From a virus (Duplodnaviria; Heunggongvirae; Uroviricota; Caudoviricetes), in IMG/VR virus record IMGVR_UViG_2778261630_000006, positions 1-39,415 of that record: DNA of 39,415 nt; one strand, 5' to 3'. Both the position numbers and the translations under genes were made by a program. The notes under the pieces are model-generated. The model was given only the letters and a program-made list of their open reading frames with translations, did not search any database and was not told the origin of the DNA. Positions 4,458-39,415 of the stretch are shown one piece after another; position 1 is the first letter of the stretch; each line of letters opens with the position of its first letter.

Positions 4458-4712
4458 ATGGCTAGAGATGATCCGCACTTTAACTTCCGCATGCCTTTGG
4501 AAGTAAGAGAAAAATTAAAATACAGAGCAGAGTCAAACGGTAGATCAATGAACTCAGAATTGTTGCAAATCGTCCAAGATGCTCTATCGAGACCATCTCC
4601 TGTAAAAGGTTATCGCAATGAAGCTGAACGATTAGCCGAGATGCAGGCTGAACAGTTCAAGTCTGTGGTATTTGAGACACTTAAAAACATGTATGGCAAG
4701 GATGCAAAATGA
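4458..4712 (+). CDS. mnt: Mnt repressor (ribbon-helix-helix)
   Basis: Translation MARDDPHFNFRMPLEVREKLKYRAESNGRSMNSELLQIVQDAL... matches P22 Mnt. Confidence 0.9.
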   Translation: MARDDPHFNFRMPLEVREKLKYRAESNGRSMNSELLQIVQDALSRPSPVKGYRNEAERLAEMQAEQFKSVVFETLKNMYGKDAK

Positions 4713-5290
4713 TCGATTACAACCCAGCAAAAAAAGAAGTCATTGCAGCTAAAAAGTGCCTAGAGCAGATGAAATCATCTACAAACCATGATGATTTTGA
4801 AATGCACTGGCGAGAATGTCTTGGGCATATAGAAAAGTCTTTCAGTAAGTTGCTCTGTGCAACAAAGCCGGTTAGTGGAAAATTTAGCAGCCACTTCAAC
4901 CAAAAGTTCATGCTTAGAAAAACAGACAAAACCCTTGCTTACCTTCACCAAGCAAGAAATGCTGATCATCATTCCACTATGGAAATCTCAAAACTTGAAC
5001 CTCCTTATACTACTCTTGGGGCATTTCCGGGAGCAAGAAGCCATTATATTAAAGAGTTAATCATTGATTCAACAGGTAAAATAGCAAAATACGAAGGCGA
5101 CCCTATGATAGTTGAGTTTCATCCAGCAACAACTATGCCTATAACCGTAAGAAACCAAGGCAAAGATTATCCACCTCCAACAGAACATCTTGGCGAAAAG
5201 CTTGTTGATATACATCCATCTGTTCTTGCCTATCTCGGTATACAATTTTATGAAAAATGGATAGATGAGTCGTGTGCAACGTTTAGATAG
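4709..5290 (+). CDS. Hypothetical protein, translationally coupled to mnt
   Basis: ATGA overlap with the mnt stop. 193-codon ORF in an AT-rich segment. No family recognised. Confidence 0.6.
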   Translation: MIDYNPAKKEVIAAKKCLEQMKSSTNHDDFEMHWRECLGHIEKSFSKLLCATKPVSGKFSSHFNQKFMLRKTDKTLAYLHQARNADHHSTMEISKLEPPYTTLGAFPGARSHYIKELIIDSTGKIAKYEGDPMIVEFHPATTMPITVRNQGKDYPPPTEHLGEKLVDIHPSVLAYLGIQFYEKWIDESCATFR

Positions 5291-5457
5291 TTATTTTTGA
5301 TAATTTCAAGTATTTCCTCTTGACTTTGATTTACCCAAACGTGATCACACTCATGAAACCAGATTATGCTTCCTGTTTCGCCTTGTGCAATATAGGTGAT
5401 CATGTTTTCATTAACAATTATTACTGAGTTATCATGTGCGCAATTTAGTTTTATCAA
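5248..5457 (-). CDS. Possible small convergent ORF (69 aa)
   Basis: ORF overlaps the 3' end of the 4709-5290 gene by 43 bp. Weak ribosome-binding site. Could be spurious. Confidence 0.2.
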
Positions 5458-5519
5458 TTCGCATATCCTATCGTGACAAAGTAACTAGAAAAACTAAAGA
5501 GGTTGGTGTGTCTGATTCT

Positions 5520-6002
5520 ATGAGTTACGCTGTGCTAGTTGCCGCAACTCTATTTATTGGGATAGGGTTGCAGATTGCGTGGTTCTTTTTCTCTAGTTTT
5601 ATTAAACGCAAAAGAATTGAATCAAGGATATCTGAGATTTCTATTGCTATAGGGAAAAATGCTGAAAATTCAGAGAATGAGGCCTGCGCACTGAATTACC
5701 TTAAAGAAAAGTTTTCCCCTGAAAAATTTGAAAATAGAATTACTGATGCTCTTGGATTGGTAATATCAGTAATTCATATGCCACTAAGTTTGCTGATAAC
5801 AGTGTGGTACTTCGCCATGATCGCCGGAAGAATATTTGGCTTCATGAATATAGAGCCTGTAGTTCTTTGGGTTCCAATGATACTGCAACTGTTGTTAAGC
5901 GTTGCTATCTTTATTTTTTCTGTTTTTATAAAAATTGTCTTTGGAAGATACCCCGGAGAAGCGAAGGGATTTAATAAAGAATTCATAAAAACTATAAAAT
6001 AA
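5520..6002 (+). CDS. Inner-membrane protein at the position of P22 sieA; candidate superinfection exclusion protein
   Basis: About 160 aa with an N-terminal transmembrane segment and a C-terminal hydrophobic cluster. Sits between gp16 and mnt. Start is ATG 5520 or upstream GTG 5508 (AGAGG ribosome-binding site). Confidence 0.55.
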
Positions 6003-21498: not shown

Positions 21499-21971
21499 AC
21501 CTCAATCTCTCTGACCGTTCCGCCCGCTTCTTTGAATTTTGCAATCAGGCTGTCAGCCTTATGCTCGAACTGACCATAACCAGCGCCCGGCAGTGAAGCC
21601 CAGATATTGCTGCAACGGTCGATTGCCTGACGGATATCACCGCGATCAATCATCGGTAAAGCGCCACGCTCTTTAATCTGCTGCAGAGCTACAGCGTCCT
21701 GGCTTTCTGGAGAAAAATCTTTCAGGCCAAGCTGTTTACGGTAAGCATCCCACCAGCGTAAAAGAAGCTGGTAACGTCCGGCGGCTGTTGATTTGAGTTT
21801 GGGGTTTAGCGTGACAAGTTTGCGAGGGTGATCGGAGTAATCAGTGAATAGCTCTCCGCCAACAATGACGTCATAACCATGATTTCTGGTTTTCTGTCGT
21901 CCGTTATCAGTTCCCTCTGACCACGCCAGCATATCGAGGAACGCCTTACGTTGATTATTGATTTCCACCAT
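21495..21971 (-). CDS. R: Endolysin R (lytic transglycosylase)
   Basis: Translation nearly identical to lambda R as recalled. Confidence 0.95.
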
Positions 21972-32695: not shown

Positions 32696-33301
32696 ATGAG
32701 CAAAGAATTTTACGCAAGACTGGCAGCTATTCAGGAGAATCTGAACGCGCCAAAGAATCAGTACAACTCATTCGGTAAATATAAATACAGAAGCTGCGAA
32801 GATATTCTTGAAGGCGTTAAGCCGTTACTGAATGGCCTGTTTTTATCAATCAGCGATGAAGTTGTGTTGATTGGTGATCGGTATTATGTGAAAGCCACGG
32901 CAACTATTACCGATGGCGAAAACAGTCATACGGCAACCGCTCTTGCACGAGAGGAAGAAAGCAAGAAAGGAATGGATTCTGCACAAGTTACGGGAGCTAC
33001 AAGCTCTTATGCACGCAAGTATTGCCTCAATGGTTTGTTCGGCATTGATGATGCGAAAGATGCAGATACCGACGAGCATAAACATCAGCAGAACGCAGCA
33101 GCAAAGCAATCAAAACCATCACCTACACCTGAACAGGTTCTAAAAGCATTCACTGACGCAGCAATGCAGAAAAACACCGTAGAAGAGCTTAAACAGGCGT
33201 TCGCCAAAGCGTGGAAGATGCTCGAAGGTACACCGGAGCAGCACAAAGCGCAGGACGTTTACAACATCAGACGAGACGAATTAGAAGGGGCAACTGCTTA
33301 A
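32696..33301 (+). CDS. erf: Erf single-strand annealing protein
   Basis: MSKEFYARLAAIQENLNAPKNQYNSFGKYKYRSCEDILEGVKPLL... matches P22 Erf. Confidence 0.92.
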   Translation: MSKEFYARLAAIQENLNAPKNQYNSFGKYKYRSCEDILEGVKPLLNGLFLSISDEVVLIGDRYYVKATATITDGENSHTATALAREEESKKGMDSAQVTGATSSYARKYCLNGLFGIDDAKDADTDEHKHQQNAAAKQSKPSPTPEQVLKAFTDAAMQKNTVEELKQAFAKAWKMLEGTPEQHKAQDVYNIRRDELEGATA

Positions 33302-33684
33302 TGGCACACTCGATTACTGTAAGACTAAACAGGCCAGCAAGAGAGTTTCAGGCCGGGGAAAATATCGGATTCAATATCCGTGCTGGCGTTCAGTATTACG
33401 ATCGCCAGACAAAAAAGAAAGAATGGACAAACTACAGCGCCGTTGTATTTGCCAAGCCGGGAGCGCAAGCGGATTACTACCGTAGTATTCTTGTTGAAGG
33501 TGGCATTGTAGAAATTACCGGAGAAAACATCAGGGTTGATGTTTATCAGGGGCAAAATGGTCAATCAATCACTCTTGAATTACTGAATGCAAAGATTGGA
33601 TTTGCAACATCAGGAAACTGCCAACAGCAACAAAGTAGCAATCATCAAAATCATCCTGAATACGATGATTCAATTCCCTTCTAA
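33301..33684 (+). CDS. Phage single-stranded DNA-binding protein
   Basis: About 127 aa; Gln-rich tail ending DDSIPF, a typical SSB acidic tip. TAATG overlap with erf. Confidence 0.7.
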   Translation: MAHSITVRLNRPAREFQAGENIGFNIRAGVQYYDRQTKKKEWTNYSAVVFAKPGAQADYYRSILVEGGIVEITGENIRVDVYQGQNGQSITLELLNAKIGFATSGNCQQQQSSNHQNHPEYDDSIPF

Positions 33685-33707
33685 ATTAGCAATATAAGGA
33701 TTCCATT

Positions 33708-34001
33708 ATGCCAGCGCCTATGTATGGTGCGGATGACCCGCGCCGCTGTTCCGGCAAATCAGTATCGGAGGTGCTGGATAAATTCAGAAAAAACTACGAC
33801 CTGATAATGTCGCTACCGCAGGAAACGAAAGAGGAAAAGGAATTTCGTCATTGTATATGGCTTGCAGAGAAAGAAGAACGCGAGCGAATTTACCAGACAT
33901 CAATCCGACCATTCCGTAAAGCCACATATACCCACTTCCCTGAAATCGACCCGCGCCTGCGTAATTACCGCTCACGCTATGGCGCTATCAGTAATAACTG
34001 A
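33708..34001 (+). CDS. Hypothetical protein (97 aa), Abc2-like by position
   Basis: AAGGA ribosome-binding site. Anti-RecBCD role is suggested only by position next to erf. Confidence 0.35.
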
Positions 34002-34011
34002 GGAATTTACC

Positions 34012-34176
34012 ATGAGAGGACTTGCATACAATCCCGGCATTCTTCCTGCAGAAATGATTATTCGCCAACGCGTAAAGCCAATGCCATCGAGAGAGGAATT
34101 GCTTAAGAGAAATTCTTTTCCTTCAGTGAATCAAAACAAATATCTGAATGCGATGTGGCGGAGTGGGAAGAAATGA
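34012..34176 (+). CDS. Small ORF (54 aa)
   Basis: GAGGAA ribosome-binding site then ATG; stop overlaps the next start. Confidence 0.4.
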
Positions 34177-34607
34177 AACAAATGACACTAATTGAGATGG
34201 ATGGATTTCTGAAAGGTAAATGCATCCCACGAGATTTAAAGGTTAACGAAACAAACGCTGAATATCTGGTGCGTAAATTTGCTGAACTTGAAGCTAAATG
34301 CGCGGCGCTGGCTGCGGAGAATGCAAGGCTGAAGAAGTTCTGCAAAGACGCTGCATTCGATGCCGATTACGAAGCAGAGCTAGGTATGGAGAGAGGTGGA
34401 TTCAGTGATGCACTTAACGAAATCAAAACCCCGGCCACCGACGCATTCCTGGCTGAAGTGCGGGCGCAGGGATTGGAGATGTTTGCACAGAAATGTAACT
34501 CAAAATCCGAACAGTCGCTTGCATCTGATATACGCGATAACTGGAAACTACTCGGTGAGCATGCGACTGACTTTGCCGCAGAGCTTCGCAAAGGAGGCAA
34601 CCAGTGA
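34173..34607 (+). CDS. Hypothetical protein (144 aa), helical
   Basis: ATGA coupling with the upstream ORF; no family recognised. Confidence 0.5.
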
Positions 34608-35089
34608 CTGGACATGCAGCAATCCTCGACATGTACTGTGGCAGTCGCATGTTCTGGTTCGATAAGAATGACGACCGGGCGATATTTAGCGATATCAGAA
34701 AGGAAGAGCACACATTGTGTGATGGACGACGCCTGATTATCAGTCCTGACCTGATAGCTGATTTTCGTGCACTACCATTTGCAGACGCATCCTTTTCGAT
34801 GGTTGTATTCGACCCTCCGCATCTTGAGCGTGTTGGTGATAACGCCTGGATGGGAAAGAAATATGGACGGCTGAATAAAGATACCTGGCGTGATGATTTA
34901 CGGCAGGGATTCAAAGAAGCCTTTCGTGTGTTGTGGCCATACGGCGTTCTGATTTTTAAATGGAATGAAACGCAAATACCTGTTCGCCAGATATTGGCAC
35001 TGACCGACAGAAAGCCTGTTATCGGTCAACGAACAGGAAAGGGTGACAAGACCCACTGGATTATTTTTATGAAGGAGGGCAACCAGTGA
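34604..35089 (+). CDS. Small SAM-dependent methyltransferase-like protein (GTG start)
   Basis: Motif I-like ILDMYCGSR near the N-terminus and motif IV-like VVFDPPH. Only 161 aa, so no obvious target-recognition domain. Confidence 0.5.
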   Translation: MTGHAAILDMYCGSRMFWFDKNDDRAIFSDIRKEEHTLCDGRRLIISPDLIADFRALPFADASFSMVVFDPPHLERVGDNAWMGKKYGRLNKDTWRDDLRQGFKEAFRVLWPYGVLIFKWNETQIPVRQILALTDRKPVIGQRTGKGDKTHWIIFMKEGNQ

Positions 35090-35727
35090 GCGAGATTGAT
35101 TATCAGGCGCTACGGGAACGTTATTCACCTAAGCCAGTACCTGAATGCTCTGTTTGTGGCGAGGAAATGTCAATACAGCGTATATCTGGAGCACATGTCA
35201 CTTATGCCTGCTCCAGTTATGGTGGTGATGGAGATTTCAAAATTGGTCGAACACTTGCCGACGAGCATTATGAAAAATCACGCGTAACAGTAGTTGATGA
35301 CAGTGACCCTGATGTAATTGCACTACTGGACGAACTGGAGGCAGCAAAATCAAAACTCAACGAGCAGCGTGAGTATTACGAAGGTGTTATCTCGGATGGG
35401 AGTAAGCGCATTGCTGAACTGGAGAAAAGCGAAGAGCAACTCATTAATGAGCGTGACCATGCTGAGTCTGCTTTAGCTGTTATGTACTTTGCAGCAACCG
35501 GGGATAGGCCTGAGTGGAGCAACTGGTTCGGCTTTTCTGATGCCGTTGATGCCGTGGTTGACAGAATTGCTGATTTAGAAGCCAAACAGCCATCGCCAGT
35601 AGTACCGGAAGAAAAACCAATGCCTAACCCTCTTAGCATGTACGCGGTTGATGCTGTTGCCGCTATTGCAGAGGTGAGAGGCTGGAACGCCTGCCGTGCC
35701 GCTATGCTTCAGGGGAAAGGAGAGTGA
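35086..35727 (+). CDS. Ead/Ea22-like early protein
   Basis: Acidic coiled-coil middle and C-terminal AAMLQGKGE tail shared with the 35937-36386 gene. Confidence 0.5.
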   Translation: MSEIDYQALRERYSPKPVPECSVCGEEMSIQRISGAHVTYACSSYGGDGDFKIGRTLADEHYEKSRVTVVDDSDPDVIALLDELEAAKSKLNEQREYYEGVISDGSKRIAELEKSEEQLINERDHAESALAVMYFAATGDRPEWSNWFGFSDAVDAVVDRIADLEAKQPSPVVPEEKPMPNPLSMYAVDAVAAIAEVRGWNACRAAMLQGKGE

Positions 35728-35728
35728 T

Positions 35729-35926
35729 ATGGACAAAAACACACCTGCTTACTGGAGTTTATCACTTGATACTGAATGCCCAAAATGCGGTCACAATTTC
35801 GATCTGCTTTGTGATGCTGATTTCTGGGAGTTTTCTGGAGCTAAACAGGCATGTGAAGAAATAAAAGGTTACGAAACATGCTGTCCAGAATGTAACCATG
35901 AATTTAAAACAGATTTTGTGTATTGA
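35729..35926 (+). CDS. Small zinc-ribbon protein (65 aa)
   Basis: Two CxxC pairs (CPKCGH ... CCPECNH). Confidence 0.5.
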   Translation: MDKNTPAYWSLSLDTECPKCGHNFDLLCDADFWEFSGAKQACEEIKGYETCCPECNHEFKTDFVY

Positions 35927-35936
35927 GGCATAACGA

Positions 35937-36386
35937 ATGACCACTTTTACTAAAGAACAATTAATAGAGATGATTAAGCGCAATATAACGGTTATGGATC
36001 GTTATCCTGATTTAGTAACTGCACAAATGGATCTGGAAGTATACAAAATTGCGCTGGCATCGCTGGAAGCAGAGCCAGTTGCTTATATTTTCAAACATCC
36101 GGCTGGGAAATTATTCTGGGCTTTAACGGATGAAAGCAATAAAGAGCAATCGGACGTTATTCCTGTTTATGCTGCCGCGCCTGCGTCGGTTGTGCCGGAT
36201 AATGCATCAGAGTCTCTTGCTTATGCTTACAAAGAGCTTACGCCTGAGATTATGCGCGGTCATATCGCTGTATTCGAGCGATACGGAATAGCCCCAAACG
36301 ATAGCACTACCACAATTCAGGCACTGCGAATCGCGCTGGATGGTATAGAGCGGAGCGACGCCATGCTTCAGGGTAAAGGAGGGTGA
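35937..36386 (+). CDS. Ead/Ea22-like early protein (paralog)
   Basis: Shares the LASLEAEPV segment and C-terminal DAMLQGKGG tail with neighbours. Confidence 0.5.
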   Translation: MTTFTKEQLIEMIKRNITVMDRYPDLVTAQMDLEVYKIALASLEAEPVAYIFKHPAGKLFWALTDESNKEQSDVIPVYAAAPASVVPDNASESLAYAYKELTPEIMRGHIAVFERYGIAPNDSTTTIQALRIALDGIERSDAMLQGKGG

Positions 36387-36387
36387 T

Positions 36388-36597
36388 ATGGCTATTGCCG
36401 CAAGTTACACCATGCATCTCTATTGTGACTGCCGCCAGTGTACGGAAGGTGTATATCCAGTGCCAGACTTCGGTGAATATATCGGTACGTCATGGGCTGG
36501 CTGTGCAAAAGAGGCCCGTAAAGACGGGTGGCGAATAAGTAAAGACAAAACACGTGCTTTTGCGCCCGGGCATAAAGTTTTGAGGATTAACAAATGA
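36388..36597 (+). CDS. Small Cys-rich hypothetical protein (69 aa)
   Basis: ATG 1 nt after the upstream stop; CDCRQC motif. Confidence 0.45.
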   Translation: MAIAASYTMHLYCDCRQCTEGVYPVPDFGEYIGTSWAGCAKEARKDGWRISKDKTRAFAPGHKVLRINK

Positions 36598-37511
36598 CCA
36601 CTATTACCAGAGAACAGGCACAGAAAATTATTGAAGCAGCCGATGAGGTTATTAGTGCGCTGGCCGGAACTAATGAGGATGTTCACCCTGGTAGCGATAA
36701 CATGCTACGTCTGTGGGATGACCTGAATGACCGTCACGCGCCCCCTGAAGTTGTGCGTGAGTTGGCACGAATTGTGCTGGCATCGCTGGAAGCAGAGCCT
36801 GTTCTGTATCAGTCCTGCACTCGCCCCACCTGGAATAGCGGTGTTCCGTGGACGGAATGGAAAGAACGAAGTCGTGAGTGCTACGAAGACGATTTGCGCT
36901 TTACAGACACGCCTGACCATGCCGGTTGGATATACAAATGTCGAAAACTATATACCAATCCGCCAGCGCCGATAGCGTTGGAGGCCATTGAAAACGCAAT
37001 TGAATACATCCGCAGTATCGCTTTCCACATCGATGAAGACGATTACCACGGCAAACATATTGCGTATTTCATGCGACAAGCATTGGCCTGGCTGGAAGGG
37101 CATTCATGCAGCGACGACAGACTGGGTAAAGCCGATAATCAACCAGTACGCGGCAACCAGGCTGCCGAATCCAATCGCGGTAATGAGTGGACCGGCAATC
37201 CTGATATTGATAACGCCATCATCATGCTCGATCGCATAGATACGCTGGAAAGTTGCGATGATGACCGTATTGAGGCTGTTAAGGCTGTTTTGCGTAGACT
37301 GGCTGGCAACTCTCCGGTAACTCCGGATGATTGGATAAGCTGTAGTGAGCGAATGCCCGCTCAAGATGATTGGATTTTAATTTATTCAAAGCACGGCGAG
37401 TATATGGCAGGACAGGTACAAGGGGAATACGTGGAGTTGAGCGACGGCACTTTATCGTGGTTAGGGAACGCCTTGTTCTGGATGCCGCTACCAGAACCGC
37501 CTCAGGGGTGA
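36594..37511 (+). CDS. DUF551-type early protein with Ea22-like N-terminal segment
   Basis: C-terminal ERMPAQDDWILIY...WMPLPEPPQG is DUF551-like; N-terminal LASLEAEPV repeat shared with 35937-36386. Confidence 0.55.
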   Translation: MTTITREQAQKIIEAADEVISALAGTNEDVHPGSDNMLRLWDDLNDRHAPPEVVRELARIVLASLEAEPVLYQSCTRPTWNSGVPWTEWKERSRECYEDDLRFTDTPDHAGWIYKCRKLYTNPPAPIALEAIENAIEYIRSIAFHIDEDDYHGKHIAYFMRQALAWLEGHSCSDDRLGKADNQPVRGNQAAESNRGNEWTGNPDIDNAIIMLDRIDTLESCDDDRIEAVKAVLRRLAGNSPVTPDDWISCSERMPAQDDWILIYSKHGEYMAGQVQGEYVELSDGTLSWLGNALFWMPLPEPPQG

Positions 37512-37577
37512 AATGATGCTTGGCCTGAAGTATTTTATGTAATTGGTATTGCTATATTTTTATCTGGGGATAAACGA

Positions 37578-37820
37578 ATGTTCTCTCTGATTCAACGTGG
37601 TCAGATATACACCGATAGCGCTGGCTATCCAGTAAAAATCATTCGTAGTACTGATCACTCAGTATTCTTCAAGAGGATGGATGGCTATCCTGGAAGGGTG
37701 TGCATCAGAAAATTCAATAATTTATTCGAACACATTGATCACAGAGAATATCACCAGATCCTGGCTGAAACAGAGCAGGAGAACCATCTGAAAAAATTAC
37801 GTGCCATGCAAAGGAGATAA
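37578..37820 (+). CDS. Hypothetical small protein (80 aa)
   Basis: Stand-alone ORF after an AT-rich interval; no family recognised with confidence. Confidence 0.45.
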   Translation: MFSLIQRGQIYTDSAGYPVKIIRSTDHSVFFKRMDGYPGRVCIRKFNNLFEHIDHREYHQILAETEQENHLKKLRAMQRR

Positions 37821-37873
37821 GCCGATAAAGGTGTTTGAGATAAAGATGAATATCGGCAATGAATAACAATCCT

Positions 37874-37900
37874 CGCACTCGCGGGGATTTTTTTTATCTG
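37874..37900 (+). terminator. Rho-independent terminator
   Basis: CCTCGC-ACTC-GCGGGG hairpin (one G-U pair) followed by eight T. Confidence 0.65.
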
Positions 37901-37901
37901 A

Positions 37902-37925
37902 ACTCGCTACGGCGAGTTTTGTTTT
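37902..37925 (+). terminator. Second tandem terminator-like hairpin
   Basis: ACTCGC-TACG-GCGAGT followed by TTTGTTTT. Confidence 0.45.
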
Positions 37926-37928
37926 ATA

Positions 37929-38096
37929 GAGATGATAAATGCACTTCCGAGTCACAGGTGAATGGAATGGAGAGCCATTCAACAGAGTTATCGAAGCAGA
38001 GAACATCAATGACTGCTATGACCACTGGATGATATGGGCGCAGATAGCACATGCAGAAGTAACCAATATTCGAATTGAAGGACTGAAAGAACACCA
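37929..38096 (+). CDS. Small ORF (55 aa) upstream of xis
   Basis: MHFRVTGEWNGEPFNRVIEAENINDCYDHWMIWAQIAHAEVTNIRIEGLKEHQAA; not in the ORF track (under 60 aa). Weak ribosome-binding site. A CCGCC-TGAT-GGCGG hairpin plus T-run overlaps its stop. Confidence 0.35.
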
Positions 38097-38145
38097 AGCC
38101 GCCTGATGGCGGTTTTCTCTTGCGTGTAATTGCGGAGACTTTGCG

Positions 38146-38364
38146 ATGTACTTAACACTTCAGGAGTGGAACGCACGCCAGCGGCGCCCAAGAAGCCTTG
38201 AAACAGTTCGTCGATGGGTACGCGAGTGCAGGATATTCCCTCCTCCGGTTAAGGATGGAAGAGAGTATCTGTTCCACGAATCAGCGGTAAAGGTTGACTT
38301 AAATCAACCAGTAACAGGTAGCCTTTTGAAGAGGATCAGAAATGGGAAGAAGGCGAAGTCATGA
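38146..38364 (+). CDS. xis: Excisionase
   Basis: MYLTLQEWNARQRRPRSLETVRRWVRECRIFPPPVKDGREYLFHESAVKVDLN... matches lambda Xis. Confidence 0.95.
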   Translation: MYLTLQEWNARQRRPRSLETVRRWVRECRIFPPPVKDGREYLFHESAVKVDLNQPVTGSLLKRIRNGKKAKS

Positions 38365-39415
38365 GCGCCGGGATTTACCCCCTAACCTTTATATAAGAAA
38401 CAATGGATATTACTGCTACAGGGACCCAAGGACGGGTAAAGAGTTTGGATTAGGCAGAGACAGGAGGATAGCAATTACTGAAGCAATACAGGCCAATATT
38501 GAGTTACTCTCAGACAGCGGACGCAAATCACTGATAGACAGAATTAAAGGCGGTGACGCAATCACTCTTCATGTGTGGCTTAACCGATATGAAAGAATCC
38601 TCACCGAAAGGGGGATCAGGCCGAAAACTCTACTCGACTACGCCAGCAAAATCAGGGCAATCCGAAGAAAATTGCCGGACAAACCGCTCACTGACATATC
38701 AACGAAAGAAGTGGCAGCAATGCTAAACACCTACGTAGCAGAAGGTAAAGCAGCTTCCGCAAAATTAATCAGGTCAACCCTTGTTGACGTTTTTCGTGAA
38801 GCAATAGCCGAGGGGCATGTGGCAACGAATCCGGTAACAGCAACCCGTACAGCAAAGTCAGAAGTAAGGCGCTCAAGGCTGACAGCTAATGAGTATGTCG
38901 AGATTTACCATGCAGCCGAACCTCTCCCTATCTGGCTAAGGCTGGCGATGGATTTGGCCGTCGTTACAGGGCAGAGAGTCGGCGATTTGTGCAGAATGAA
39001 ATGGTCAGACATAAACGACAACCATCTTCACATTGAACAGAGTAAAACAGGGGCTAAACTCGCCATTCCGCTAACGCTAACGATTGACGCGCTCAATATC
39101 TCATTGGCTGATACACTACAGAAATGCAGGGAGGCCAGCAGCAGTGAAACTATAATCGCATCAAAGCATCACGATCCACTTTCCCCGAAAACAGTATCAA
39201 AGTATTTTACAAAGGCGAGAAATGCATCTGGACTCTCATTTGATGGAAACCCGCCAACATTCCATGAACTGCGTAGCCTGTCAGCGAGGCTATACCGGAA
39301 CCAGATTGGCGATAAGTTTGCTCAACGTCTTCTCGGGCATAAATCAGATTCAATGGCGGCGCGGTATAGGGACAGCCGTGGACGGGAATGGGACAAAATT
39401 GAAATCGACAAATGA
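38342..39415 (+). CDS. int: Tyrosine integrase, lambda Int family
   Basis: MGRRRSHERRDLPPNLYIRNNGYYCYRDPRTGKEFGLGRDRRIAITEAIQANIEL... and C-terminal HELRSLSARLY...LLGHKSDSMAARYRD match lambda Int; overlaps xis as in lambda. Stop is the last base of the window. Confidence 0.95.
   Translation: MGRRRSHERRDLPPNLYIRNNGYYCYRDPRTGKEFGLGRDRRIAITEAIQANIELLSDSGRKSLIDRIKGGDAITLHVWLNRYERILTERGIRPKTLLDYASKIRAIRRKLPDKPLTDISTKEVAAMLNTYVAEGKAASAKLIRSTLVDVFREAIAEGHVATNPVTATRTAKSEVRRSRLTANEYVEIYHAAEPLPIWLRLAMDLAVVTGQRVGDLCRMKWSDINDNHLHIEQSKTGAKLAIPLTLTIDALNISLADTLQKCREASSSETIIASKHHDPLSPKTVSKYFTKARNASGLSFDGNPPTFHELRSLSARLYRNQIGDKFAQRLLGHKSDSMAARYRDSRGREWDKIEIDK

Follow-up and report, generated by a model that had tools for sequence, protein, structure and literature searches.

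Why should the same short sequences recur at gene junctions, and also inside genes, along a single operon of a phage genome? The question arises in the IMG/VR virus record IMGVR_UViG_2778261630_000006 (Caudoviricetes), the whole of which, 39,415 nucleotides (nt), is referred to here as the window. The window is a P22-like Escherichia coli prophage whose structural half is matched by the P22-like phages HZ41, APC_JM3.2, IME10 and P22. The repeats lie in its early-left accessory operon, on the + strand downstream of erf-ssb-abc2, where the genes overlap or abut from end to end. A sequence-only reading of the window had taken them for conserved linkers that mediate module shuffling in lambdoid phages. 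We consider it likely that homologous recombination at such shared short sequences, hereafter connectors, best explains both the repeats and the mosaic structure of this operon among related phages.

All three pairs of repeats listed in the sequence-only reading are present and far exceed chance, the matches in dinucleotide shuffles of the window numbering 0.00 for junction B, 0.06 for junction A and 0.00 for the 24-mer. In both copies of junction A, as had been described, the upstream TGA stop and the GTG start (34604, 35086) overlap, reading GTGA. The 29-mer of junction B occurs where it had been placed (35704-35732 and 36363-36391), and the match can be lengthened to 33 nt with 91% identity (35700-35732 and 36359-36391); the TGA stop is followed one base later by ATG (35729, 36388), with AAAGGAG 6 nt upstream. 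The exact 24-mer that encodes LASLEAEP has its first copy at 36053-36076, as reported, but the second lies at 36776-36799, so that the earlier coordinates (36786-36809) are off by 10; this repeat extends to 34 nt with 94% identity. A repeat finder added a fourth pair that had escaped the earlier reading (35920-35959 and 36577-36616, 40 nt, 83% identity), here connector C. The start-to-start spacings of the B, C and L pairs, L being the 24-mer connector, are 659, 657 and 723 bp, and the order B-C-L appears twice in succession: each motif is seen twice because the window holds two iterations of a Q-B-C-L series. Describing these iterations as paralogous segments overstates the case, given that the motifs are shared but the gene pairs show no homology beyond them. 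BLASTP of the window gene pairs against each other recovers only two stretches, 17 amino acids (aa) that surround LASLEAEP and the heptapeptide AMLQGKG (7 aa); the 65-aa and 69-aa small open reading frames (ORFs) yield no BLASTP alignment at all. A weaker third copy of the 24-mer core is found at 37084-37098 inside the 305-aa gene, where TGGCCTGGCTGGAAG encodes LAWLEG and is 87% identical to TGGCATCGCTGGAAG.

The accessory region is extremely mosaic: it is matched by 506 phage records, of which 0 cover 80% or more of it; likewise, 3,252 of 5,426 complete E. coli genomes match the 4.1-kb region, none covering at least 80% (best, 55%). For a sample independent of the motifs, we anchored 80 viral contigs on abc2, which gave 76 distinct similarity patterns (non-redundant loci), and scored islands as the number of loci with at least 80% similarity along the window. 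A second set of loci, fetched by the motifs themselves, was used for the reassortment of flank types. In the abc2-anchored sample, the motifs stand out as islands of similarity (Table 1), and connector D is the most widely shared island of the accessory region. Three of the islands, inside the 144-aa gene and at the start and end of DUF551, had no counterpart in the sequence-only reading. Endpoints of shared modules (100 bp or longer) cluster at the motifs: 49 of 152 fall within 12 nt of one of eight motifs compared with 20 expected (binomial p about 1e-9), and 24 of 60 compared with 7.9 expected if distinct endpoint positions are counted once, where the eight motifs occupy 13% of the region and the loci are not independent, making these p-values indicative only.

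Upstream and downstream modules show four-gamete reassortment across the motifs. For the 24-mer, 16 types of upstream flank and 16 of downstream flank were observed in 33 pairings, among them the complete U1/U2 x D1/D2 set of four, and junction B joins 6 and 5 types in 10 combinations. The edges of the shared sequence are sharp: where two loci have just the upstream flank in common, their similarity is lost 0-4 nt beyond the end of the motif in 249 of 297 pairs for L, 34 of 39 for B and 105 of 120 for D. Furthermore, numerous pairs share a motif with neither flank in common (1247 for L, 90 for B and 3627 for A). Throughout, the order of connectors is collinear, A (a) C L Q (B C L Q) D E in all 81 loci, among which the window carries the longest series, AaQBCLQBCLDE.

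A natural joint of the kind that an exchange between the two L copies would generate is present in the E. coli GF131 prophage. There, the 24-mer is preceded by the same 40 nt as L1 and followed by the same 40 nt as L2; over longer flanks, identity is 99.2% (35590-36080) and 96.8% (36770-37357). In sequence, the GF131 joint is the exact product expected from an L1 x L2 exchange, with a difference of 723 bp. The comparison with related phages that could have contradicted the linker and module-shuffling interpretation was made on the 76 loci, and the interpretation survived it: the motifs are located at recombination breakpoints. The evidence for shuffling at the motifs comprises the similarity islands, the enrichment of endpoints, the reassortment of flanks, the sharp edges and the predicted joints in natural genomes. 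That the motifs cause the exchanges, and do not simply mark them, is an inference.

In the RefSeq annotation of GF131 (locus L258, NZ_CP172134.1 3266714-3267354), a frameshifted hypothetical gene and an "incomplete" DUF551 fragment lie between the Ea22-like and modular genes; these may be debris of connector exchanges. The DUF551 gene of GF131 (4711-5520) is annotated from an internal Met, and the sequence upstream of that residue is 99% identical to the window back through the MTTFTKEQ start.

Connector A joins unrelated genes. It consists of a Shine-Dalgarno (SD) sequence, AAGGAGG, 6-7 nt before a GTG start that overlaps the TGA stop. On its upstream side stand members of three unrelated protein families (EaE-like, methyltransferase, DUF2737), each of which then ends in (K/E)GGNQ, and on its downstream side at least 7 different gene families. 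The KGGNQ end with its stop is present in 53 of the 80 abc2-anchored loci, 44 times as an identical 18-mer, and connector A is found in 150 phage records. The DUF2737 protein ends in NAMWRSGKK in the window and in NAML(R)KGGNQ in other phages when joined via connector A; because its end changes with the joining, the KGGNQ tail is a property of the junction and not of the protein.

All four pairings of an upstream gene (DUF2737 or the 144-aa gene) with a downstream gene (the 161-aa methyltransferase gene or Ea22) are joined by an identical CGCAAAGGAGG(G)CAACCAGTGA. Locus L185 has the 144-aa gene, connector A and Ea22, that is, an A1-type upstream side with the A2 downstream side; L199 has DUF2737, A and Ea22; and L189 has DUF2737, A, the methyltransferase, A and Ea22, with the same bases at each joint as in the window, where the 144-aa gene takes the place of DUF2737. 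The methyltransferase gene is present or absent as a unit, lacking in L185 and L199 and located between two A copies in L189 and L212. Because the joints in L185, L199, L189 and the window share the same bases, this gene is a cassette bounded by two copies of A. The 161-aa methyltransferase has a DPPH motif, and PGAP names its relatives "class I SAM-dependent methyltransferase".

Connector B was detected in 77 phage records. At least 6 alternative genes occur downstream of it, the 65-aa gene being one of these and the phrog_926 gene the commonest. In loci L001, L008 and L021, an upstream module of the B1 type (PMPNPL.MYAVDAVAAIAEVRGWNACRAAMLQGKGE) is joined to the gene found downstream of B2. 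The 29-mer contains two variable positions: the wobble base of a Gly codon and a base that changes E to G. In the small sample formed by L001-L022 and the window, the left variable site tends to track the type of the downstream gene and the right one the type of the upstream gene.

Junction B also bears on the C-terminus of the Ea22 proteins, all of which end in K/R-G-E, a feature whose significance was called unknown (Dydecka 2020, PMC7093339). Ea22 of phage lambda ends in IKGE encoded as AAAGGAGAGTGA, which is the core of junction B (locus L257, NC_001416 29847-30395). In the simplest reading, the K/R-G-E end would be a by-product of the junction, being made up of the codons of the junction B SD site. 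Downstream of lambda ea22, about 190 nt precede ea8.5 with no ORF of 30 aa or more and no coupled ORF; the end of lambda ea22 looks like a relic junction that has lost its downstream gene. The Ea22-like gene of the window matches 13 PHROGs, segment by segment, and has internal breakpoints at about 35330-35425 and at 35590, in a PVVPEE linker.

The intragenic connectors delimit parts of proteins that follow a combinatorial plan, MTTITKE..-LASLEAEP-..-AMLQ-..-DUF551. The 48 distinct proteins that carry the 24-mer begin with modules of 8 N-terminal families, and their C-terminal architectures are numerous. Beyond AMLQ, they terminate (GKGE or GKGG, which is junction B) or run on into further modules and DUF551, and each window protein matches 6-13 PHROG families, segment by segment. 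Connectors L, Q, D and E separate interchangeable segments of a combinatorial protein family. Between the D and E islands, the DUF551 core is replaced by unrelated sequence among loci. The connector L island is present in 208 phage records, and carriers of connectors include P22-like, HK022-like, Stx-converting, Salmonella and P1-like phages. An AlphaFold2 model of the 305-aa protein, built from the single sequence, had a mean predicted local distance difference test score of 38.7 and was unusable for domain boundaries.

A 55-aa ORF consisting of the N-module, LASLEAEP and VVFWFEKYQEGATA before the stop was observed in at least 36 contigs (L023 and 35 other 24-mer loci). Its 14-aa tail is identical to the C-terminus of a 121-aa HNH endonuclease gene that elsewhere lies downstream of junction B, which suggests that the ORF is a recombinant of the modular gene with the 3' end of the HNH gene.

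The connectors are conserved at the nucleotide level and not only at the protein level. In L, D and A, third codon positions hardly vary except in the last codon, where third-base variability in the abc2-anchored set is 0.43 for LASLEAEP (23 hits) and 0.58 for PVTPDGWISCSERMP (26 hits). A control linker from the same proteins, (L/V)YAAPPxPV, has a conserved peptide, and its 8 occurrences represent 7 different DNA versions. Nor are the motifs neutral spacers: they are SD, stop and start junctions and a putative inter-domain protein linker.

The mechanism that we propose starts from the view that the repeats are copies of a small standard set of connectors of early-left accessory ("ea", exo-xis) operons, a set common to P22-like, lambda-like, Stx and some P1-like enterobacterial phages. 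Those between genes (A, B and C) consist of a strong SD sequence and, after a spacer of 6-7 nt, a start codon in overlap or contact with the stop of the preceding gene, so that the connector dictates the last 5-7 codons of any upstream gene (KGGNQ, or KGE or KGG, before the stop). The spacing between SD and start and the overlapping stop and start codons suggest that A and B act in translational coupling. The connectors within genes, namely, L (LASLEAEP), Q (CRAAMLQ), D (ending in PVTPDGWISCSERMP) and E (HWMPLPEPP), separate exchangeable protein modules. Given the near-identical connector DNA, the unrelated modules between connectors and the constant order, recombination within connectors would swap, insert or delete genes or modules in frame, with expression signals intact. 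Connector homology would initiate these events, and the enzyme involved is probably either host RecA or the phage's own annealing protein of the Erf type, acting in the lytic cycle; the genes for Erf, SSB and Abc2 lie directly before the connector region. Erf-type recombinases act on short or diverged homology, and the minimal efficient pairing length is 23-27 bp for Red-beta and 31-34 bp for RecA (De Paepe 2014, PMC3945230). The islands of L (about 40 nt, 24 of them exact), B (about 37 nt) and D (about 55 nt) reach the quoted minimum.

Several findings weigh against this mechanism or limit its reach. Many breakpoints lie outside the motifs (34290, 35330-35425, 35590, 36170-36200). Connector A alone, 17-21 nt, is below the pairing minimum and attains about 45 nt only together with the conserved 5' end of Ea22. 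The window copies of A, and those of B, share exact runs of only 10-11 nt, below the measured minima; an intragenomic A1 x A2 or B1 x B2 exchange would therefore be rare, and only L, with 24 exact nt, nears the minimum. In 24 occurrences, a small sample, the variable sites of connector B do not segregate cleanly with the nearer flanks, as they should after a single crossover. The connectors are not more conserved than the shared modules (about 90-97% in both), a comparison that does not demonstrate special selection at the nucleotide level, and functional constraint on the SD, start and stop signals and on the inter-domain linkers could preserve them independently. Finally, the support for crossovers starting in connectors is indirect, in the form of the predicted joints that GF131, L185 and L001 carry.

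In an alternative that we find unlikely, mosaics arise by illegitimate recombination followed by functional selection, the motifs being retained for SD, start, stop or linker needs and not as sites of exchange. In published work this is the dominant alternative (summarised in PMC3233612), and it accommodates the functional translation signals of A and B, the shortness of connector A and the many breakpoints outside the motifs. Illegitimate joints, however, should be unique, whereas here the same 18-55 nt, including spacer and synonymous positions, join many unrelated partners, unrelated proteins gain the same 5-aa tail, and the GF131 joint is base-exact with near-identical flanks. Ordinary paralogy, that is, a tandem duplication of about 660-720 bp that later diverged while purifying selection held the peptide motifs, would account for the similar spacings (659, 657 and 723 bp), the equal order of motifs in both units and the conserved peptides that the motifs encode. 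Nevertheless, we deem it highly improbable: the sequence between the motifs cannot be aligned as DNA or protein, the N-modules differ in length (39 vs 61 aa), the small ORFs belong to different PHROGs, synonymous sites are conserved inside the motifs with adjacent bases random, and hundreds of phages carry these motifs between other, unrelated modules. Only the motifs align, and the duplication was accordingly rejected.

Exchange could also be driven by a dedicated enzyme, a site-specific recombinase or a homing endonuclease that targets the connectors as in integrons or intron-less homing. The methyltransferase gene does behave as a cassette bounded by direct repeats, and in other phages HNH endonuclease and PD-(D/E)xK-like cassettes adjoin connectors A and B. 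Against this stand the lack of inverted repeats or hairpins at the connectors, the lack of Pfam or PHROG matches in the region to any endonuclease or recombinase other than Int and Erf, and the similar behavior of several different connector sequences, which fits general homologous recombination; a dedicated enzyme thus appears very unlikely. Beyond homologous recombination at shared connectors as such, the connectors might constitute a selected "cassette grammar" and no mere by-product, a collinear series (A-C-L-Q-B-..-D-E) whose nucleotide identity is maintained. In P22-like, lambda-like, Stx and P1-like phages alike, it would make the operon a combinatorial generator of diversity for a family of multi-module effectors of host takeover or anti-defence, with the HNH or PD-(D/E)xK cassettes that adjoin connectors in some members perhaps stimulating exchange; we offer this broader idea as a speculation and hold it to be unlikely. 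Two further candidates for the nature of the connectors, a known structured RNA and a Chi site, were ruled out by Rfam and Chi scans. The Rfam scan of 33000-38400 gave only chance sub-threshold matches, none near the gathering score; Chi (GCTGGTGG) is absent from the accessory region, occurring once in the whole window, at 21750, and the 24-mer contains GCTGG yet is not Chi.

The concept of swapping at connectors is already established, and the operon described here is a clear, quantified further instance. In 1978, Susskind and Botstein put forward homologous recombination at short, conserved sequences on module boundaries, and Clark et al. reported it for some lambdoid genomes in 2001, with phage HK620 (summarised in PMC3233612 and PMC2327257). 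Compared through these summaries, the present case is similar in that short conserved boundaries in the early regions of P22-like and lambdoid phages flank unrelated modules that are exchanged, for which homologous recombination was proposed, and differs in that boundaries of protein modules within genes (L, Q, D and E) are involved as well. It also resembles the relaxed, homeologous recombination by phage Rad52-like recombinases, with mosaic patches bounded by short homology (Martinsohn 2008, PMC2327257; PMC3945230), and the prophage encodes Erf. RecA is outperformed by phage annealing proteins, those of the Erf type among them, when the recombining sequences are short or diverged (PMC2327257, PMC3945230). 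Those studies, however, scored "shoulders" of at least 100 bp at intermediate identity, in contrast to the 18-55 nt, near-identical and reused at many loci, found here.

The mosaic nature of Ea22 and the portable DUF551 were described in the 2024 nuclear magnetic resonance paper on Ea22 (PMC10834534). Gene 35086-35727 conforms to the published Ea22 proteins (PMC7093339, PMC10834534) in its conserved N-terminus, coiled coil, variable C-terminal part and KGE end; the difference is that the +GE motif, of unknown significance in those papers, corresponds here and in lambda to SD codons of connector B. Integron cassettes are comparable as promoterless genes inserted or deleted as units between repeated boundaries in a co-transcribed array. 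Unlike in integrons, attC hairpins and an IntI-type integrase are missing, translation signals form the boundaries, and the exchange is apparently driven by homology; no attC-like inverted repeats were found at the connectors, and the sole integrase of the window is the phage Int. In T-even phages, short conserved motifs in tail-fibre adhesin genes are reportedly the crossover points at which hypervariable segments are swapped, as Tetart, Desplats and Krisch are said to have described in 1998; phage group, proteins and motifs are different from those considered here.

The additions made here are the intragenic connectors with base-sharp edges, the collinear order, the exact natural recombinant at the 24-mer and a simple explanation of the K/RGE end. 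Connectors of 18-55 nt join many unrelated genes and modules, base-exact, in hundreds of phages and thousands of E. coli prophages. This makes the operon a densely sampled case for the model of homologous recombination at boundaries, which has long competed with that of illegitimate recombination plus selection. The connectors also account for the fragmented, frameshifted and chimeric "DUF551" or "Ea22-like" genes produced by annotation pipelines, and are natural, testable recombination substrates for Erf- and Red-type recombinases.

Table 1. Genes, connectors and similarity islands of the accessory operon and its surroundings (window positions; for islands, the number of loci at the island and to its left and right).
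Feature	Positions	Strand	Match, content or loci
erf, Erf-like single-strand annealing recombinase	32696..33301	+	PHROG phrog_155, E=1.4e-57
ssb	33301..33684	+	PHROG phrog_44, E=1.6e-26
abc2, anti-RecBCD	33708..34001	+	Pfam PF11043, E=3e-64
DUF2737 gene	34012..34176	+	
EaE-like gene, 144 aa	34173..34607	+	ends RKGGNQ, stop
DNA methyltransferase, 161 aa	34604..35089	+	PHROG phrog_954, E=3e-86; between connector A copies
Ead/Ea22-like gene, 213 aa	35086..35727	+	Pfam PF13935, E=1.3e-24; ends GWNACRAAMLQGKGE, stop
Small gene, 65 aa	35729..35926	+	CxxC..CxxC, zinc-ribbon-like
Modular gene, 149 aa	35937..36386	+	N-module - LASLEAEP - module - YAAAPASVVP - module - AMLQGKGG, stop
Small Cys-rich gene, 69 aa	36388..36597	+	phrog_926
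Modular gene, 305 aa	36594..37511	+	N-module - LASLEAEP - modules - GNSPVTPDDWISCSERMP - DUF551 core - WMPLPEPPQG, stop
DUF4222 gene	37578..37820		downstream of 305-aa gene
55-aa gene	37939..38106		phrog_676; then xis, int
Phage Int	38342..39415		
Connector A, copy 1	34587..34607 (junction 34590-34607)	+	CGC AAAGGAGGCAACCAGTGA, encodes tail RKGGNQ, stop
Connector A, copy 2	35072..35117	+	AAGGAGGGCAACCAGTGA (35072-35089) and conserved 5' end of Ea22-like gene
Connector Q/B, copy 1	35680..35732	+	CRAAMLQ, then GKGE, stop = AAAGGAG (SD) AGTGAT ATG
Connector B, copy 2	36359..36391	+	AMLQGKGG, stop, with SD and ATG at 36388
Connector C, copy 1	35920..35959	+	small-gene stop and ATGACCAC (MTTFTKEQ), conserved 5' start of modular genes
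Connector C, copy 2	36577..36616	+	ATGA stop/start overlap, MTTITREQ
Connector L, copy 1	36038..36080	+	exact 24-mer GCTGGCATCGCTGGAAGCAGAGCC; KIALASLEAEPV
Connector L, copy 2	36763..36803	+	exact 24-mer
Connector D	37300..37357	+	DUF551 domain start (NSPVTPDGWISCSERMP)
Connector E	37478..37518	+	end of DUF551 genes (HWMPLPEPP.., stop)
Island in 144-aa EaE-like gene	34420-34481		about 40/76; left 9, right 0
Island A1	34590-34607		21/76; left 0, right 5
Island A2	35072-35117		34/76; left 2, right 0
Island B1	35680-35714		15/76; left 9, right 4
Island L1	36047-36080		28/76; left 0, right 9
Island C2	36577-36616		13/76; left 7, right 4
Island L2	36763-36803		26/76; left 4, right 1
Island D, DUF551 start	37300-37357		55/76; left 2, right 5
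Island E, DUF551 gene end	37478-37518		16/76; left 5, right 3

Two Pfam assignments are above the gathering threshold, PF13935 in the Ea22-like gene 35086-35727 (87.8 bits vs a cut-off of 27) and DUF551, PF04448, in residues 247-304 of the 305-aa gene (41.5 bits vs a cut-off of 22). A sigma-70 consensus scan of 33600-38400 (4.8 kb) gave 0 promoter-like sites vs 8.2 +/- 2.9 in shuffles; the absence of such sites from the accessory operon fits one long transcript, and the deficit suggests that internal promoters are avoided there. In the 144-aa gene, many high-scoring segment pairs stop at about 34290-34334. Downstream of the modular genes, the segment 37860-38126, upstream of the phrog_676 gene and xis, is common to 33-46 of the 76 loci. 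Terminator-like + strand hairpins are located at 37868-37889 and 37900-37919, just 5' of the 55-aa phrog_676 gene, and the segment may serve, ahead of xis-int, as a conserved site of transcription termination or processing.

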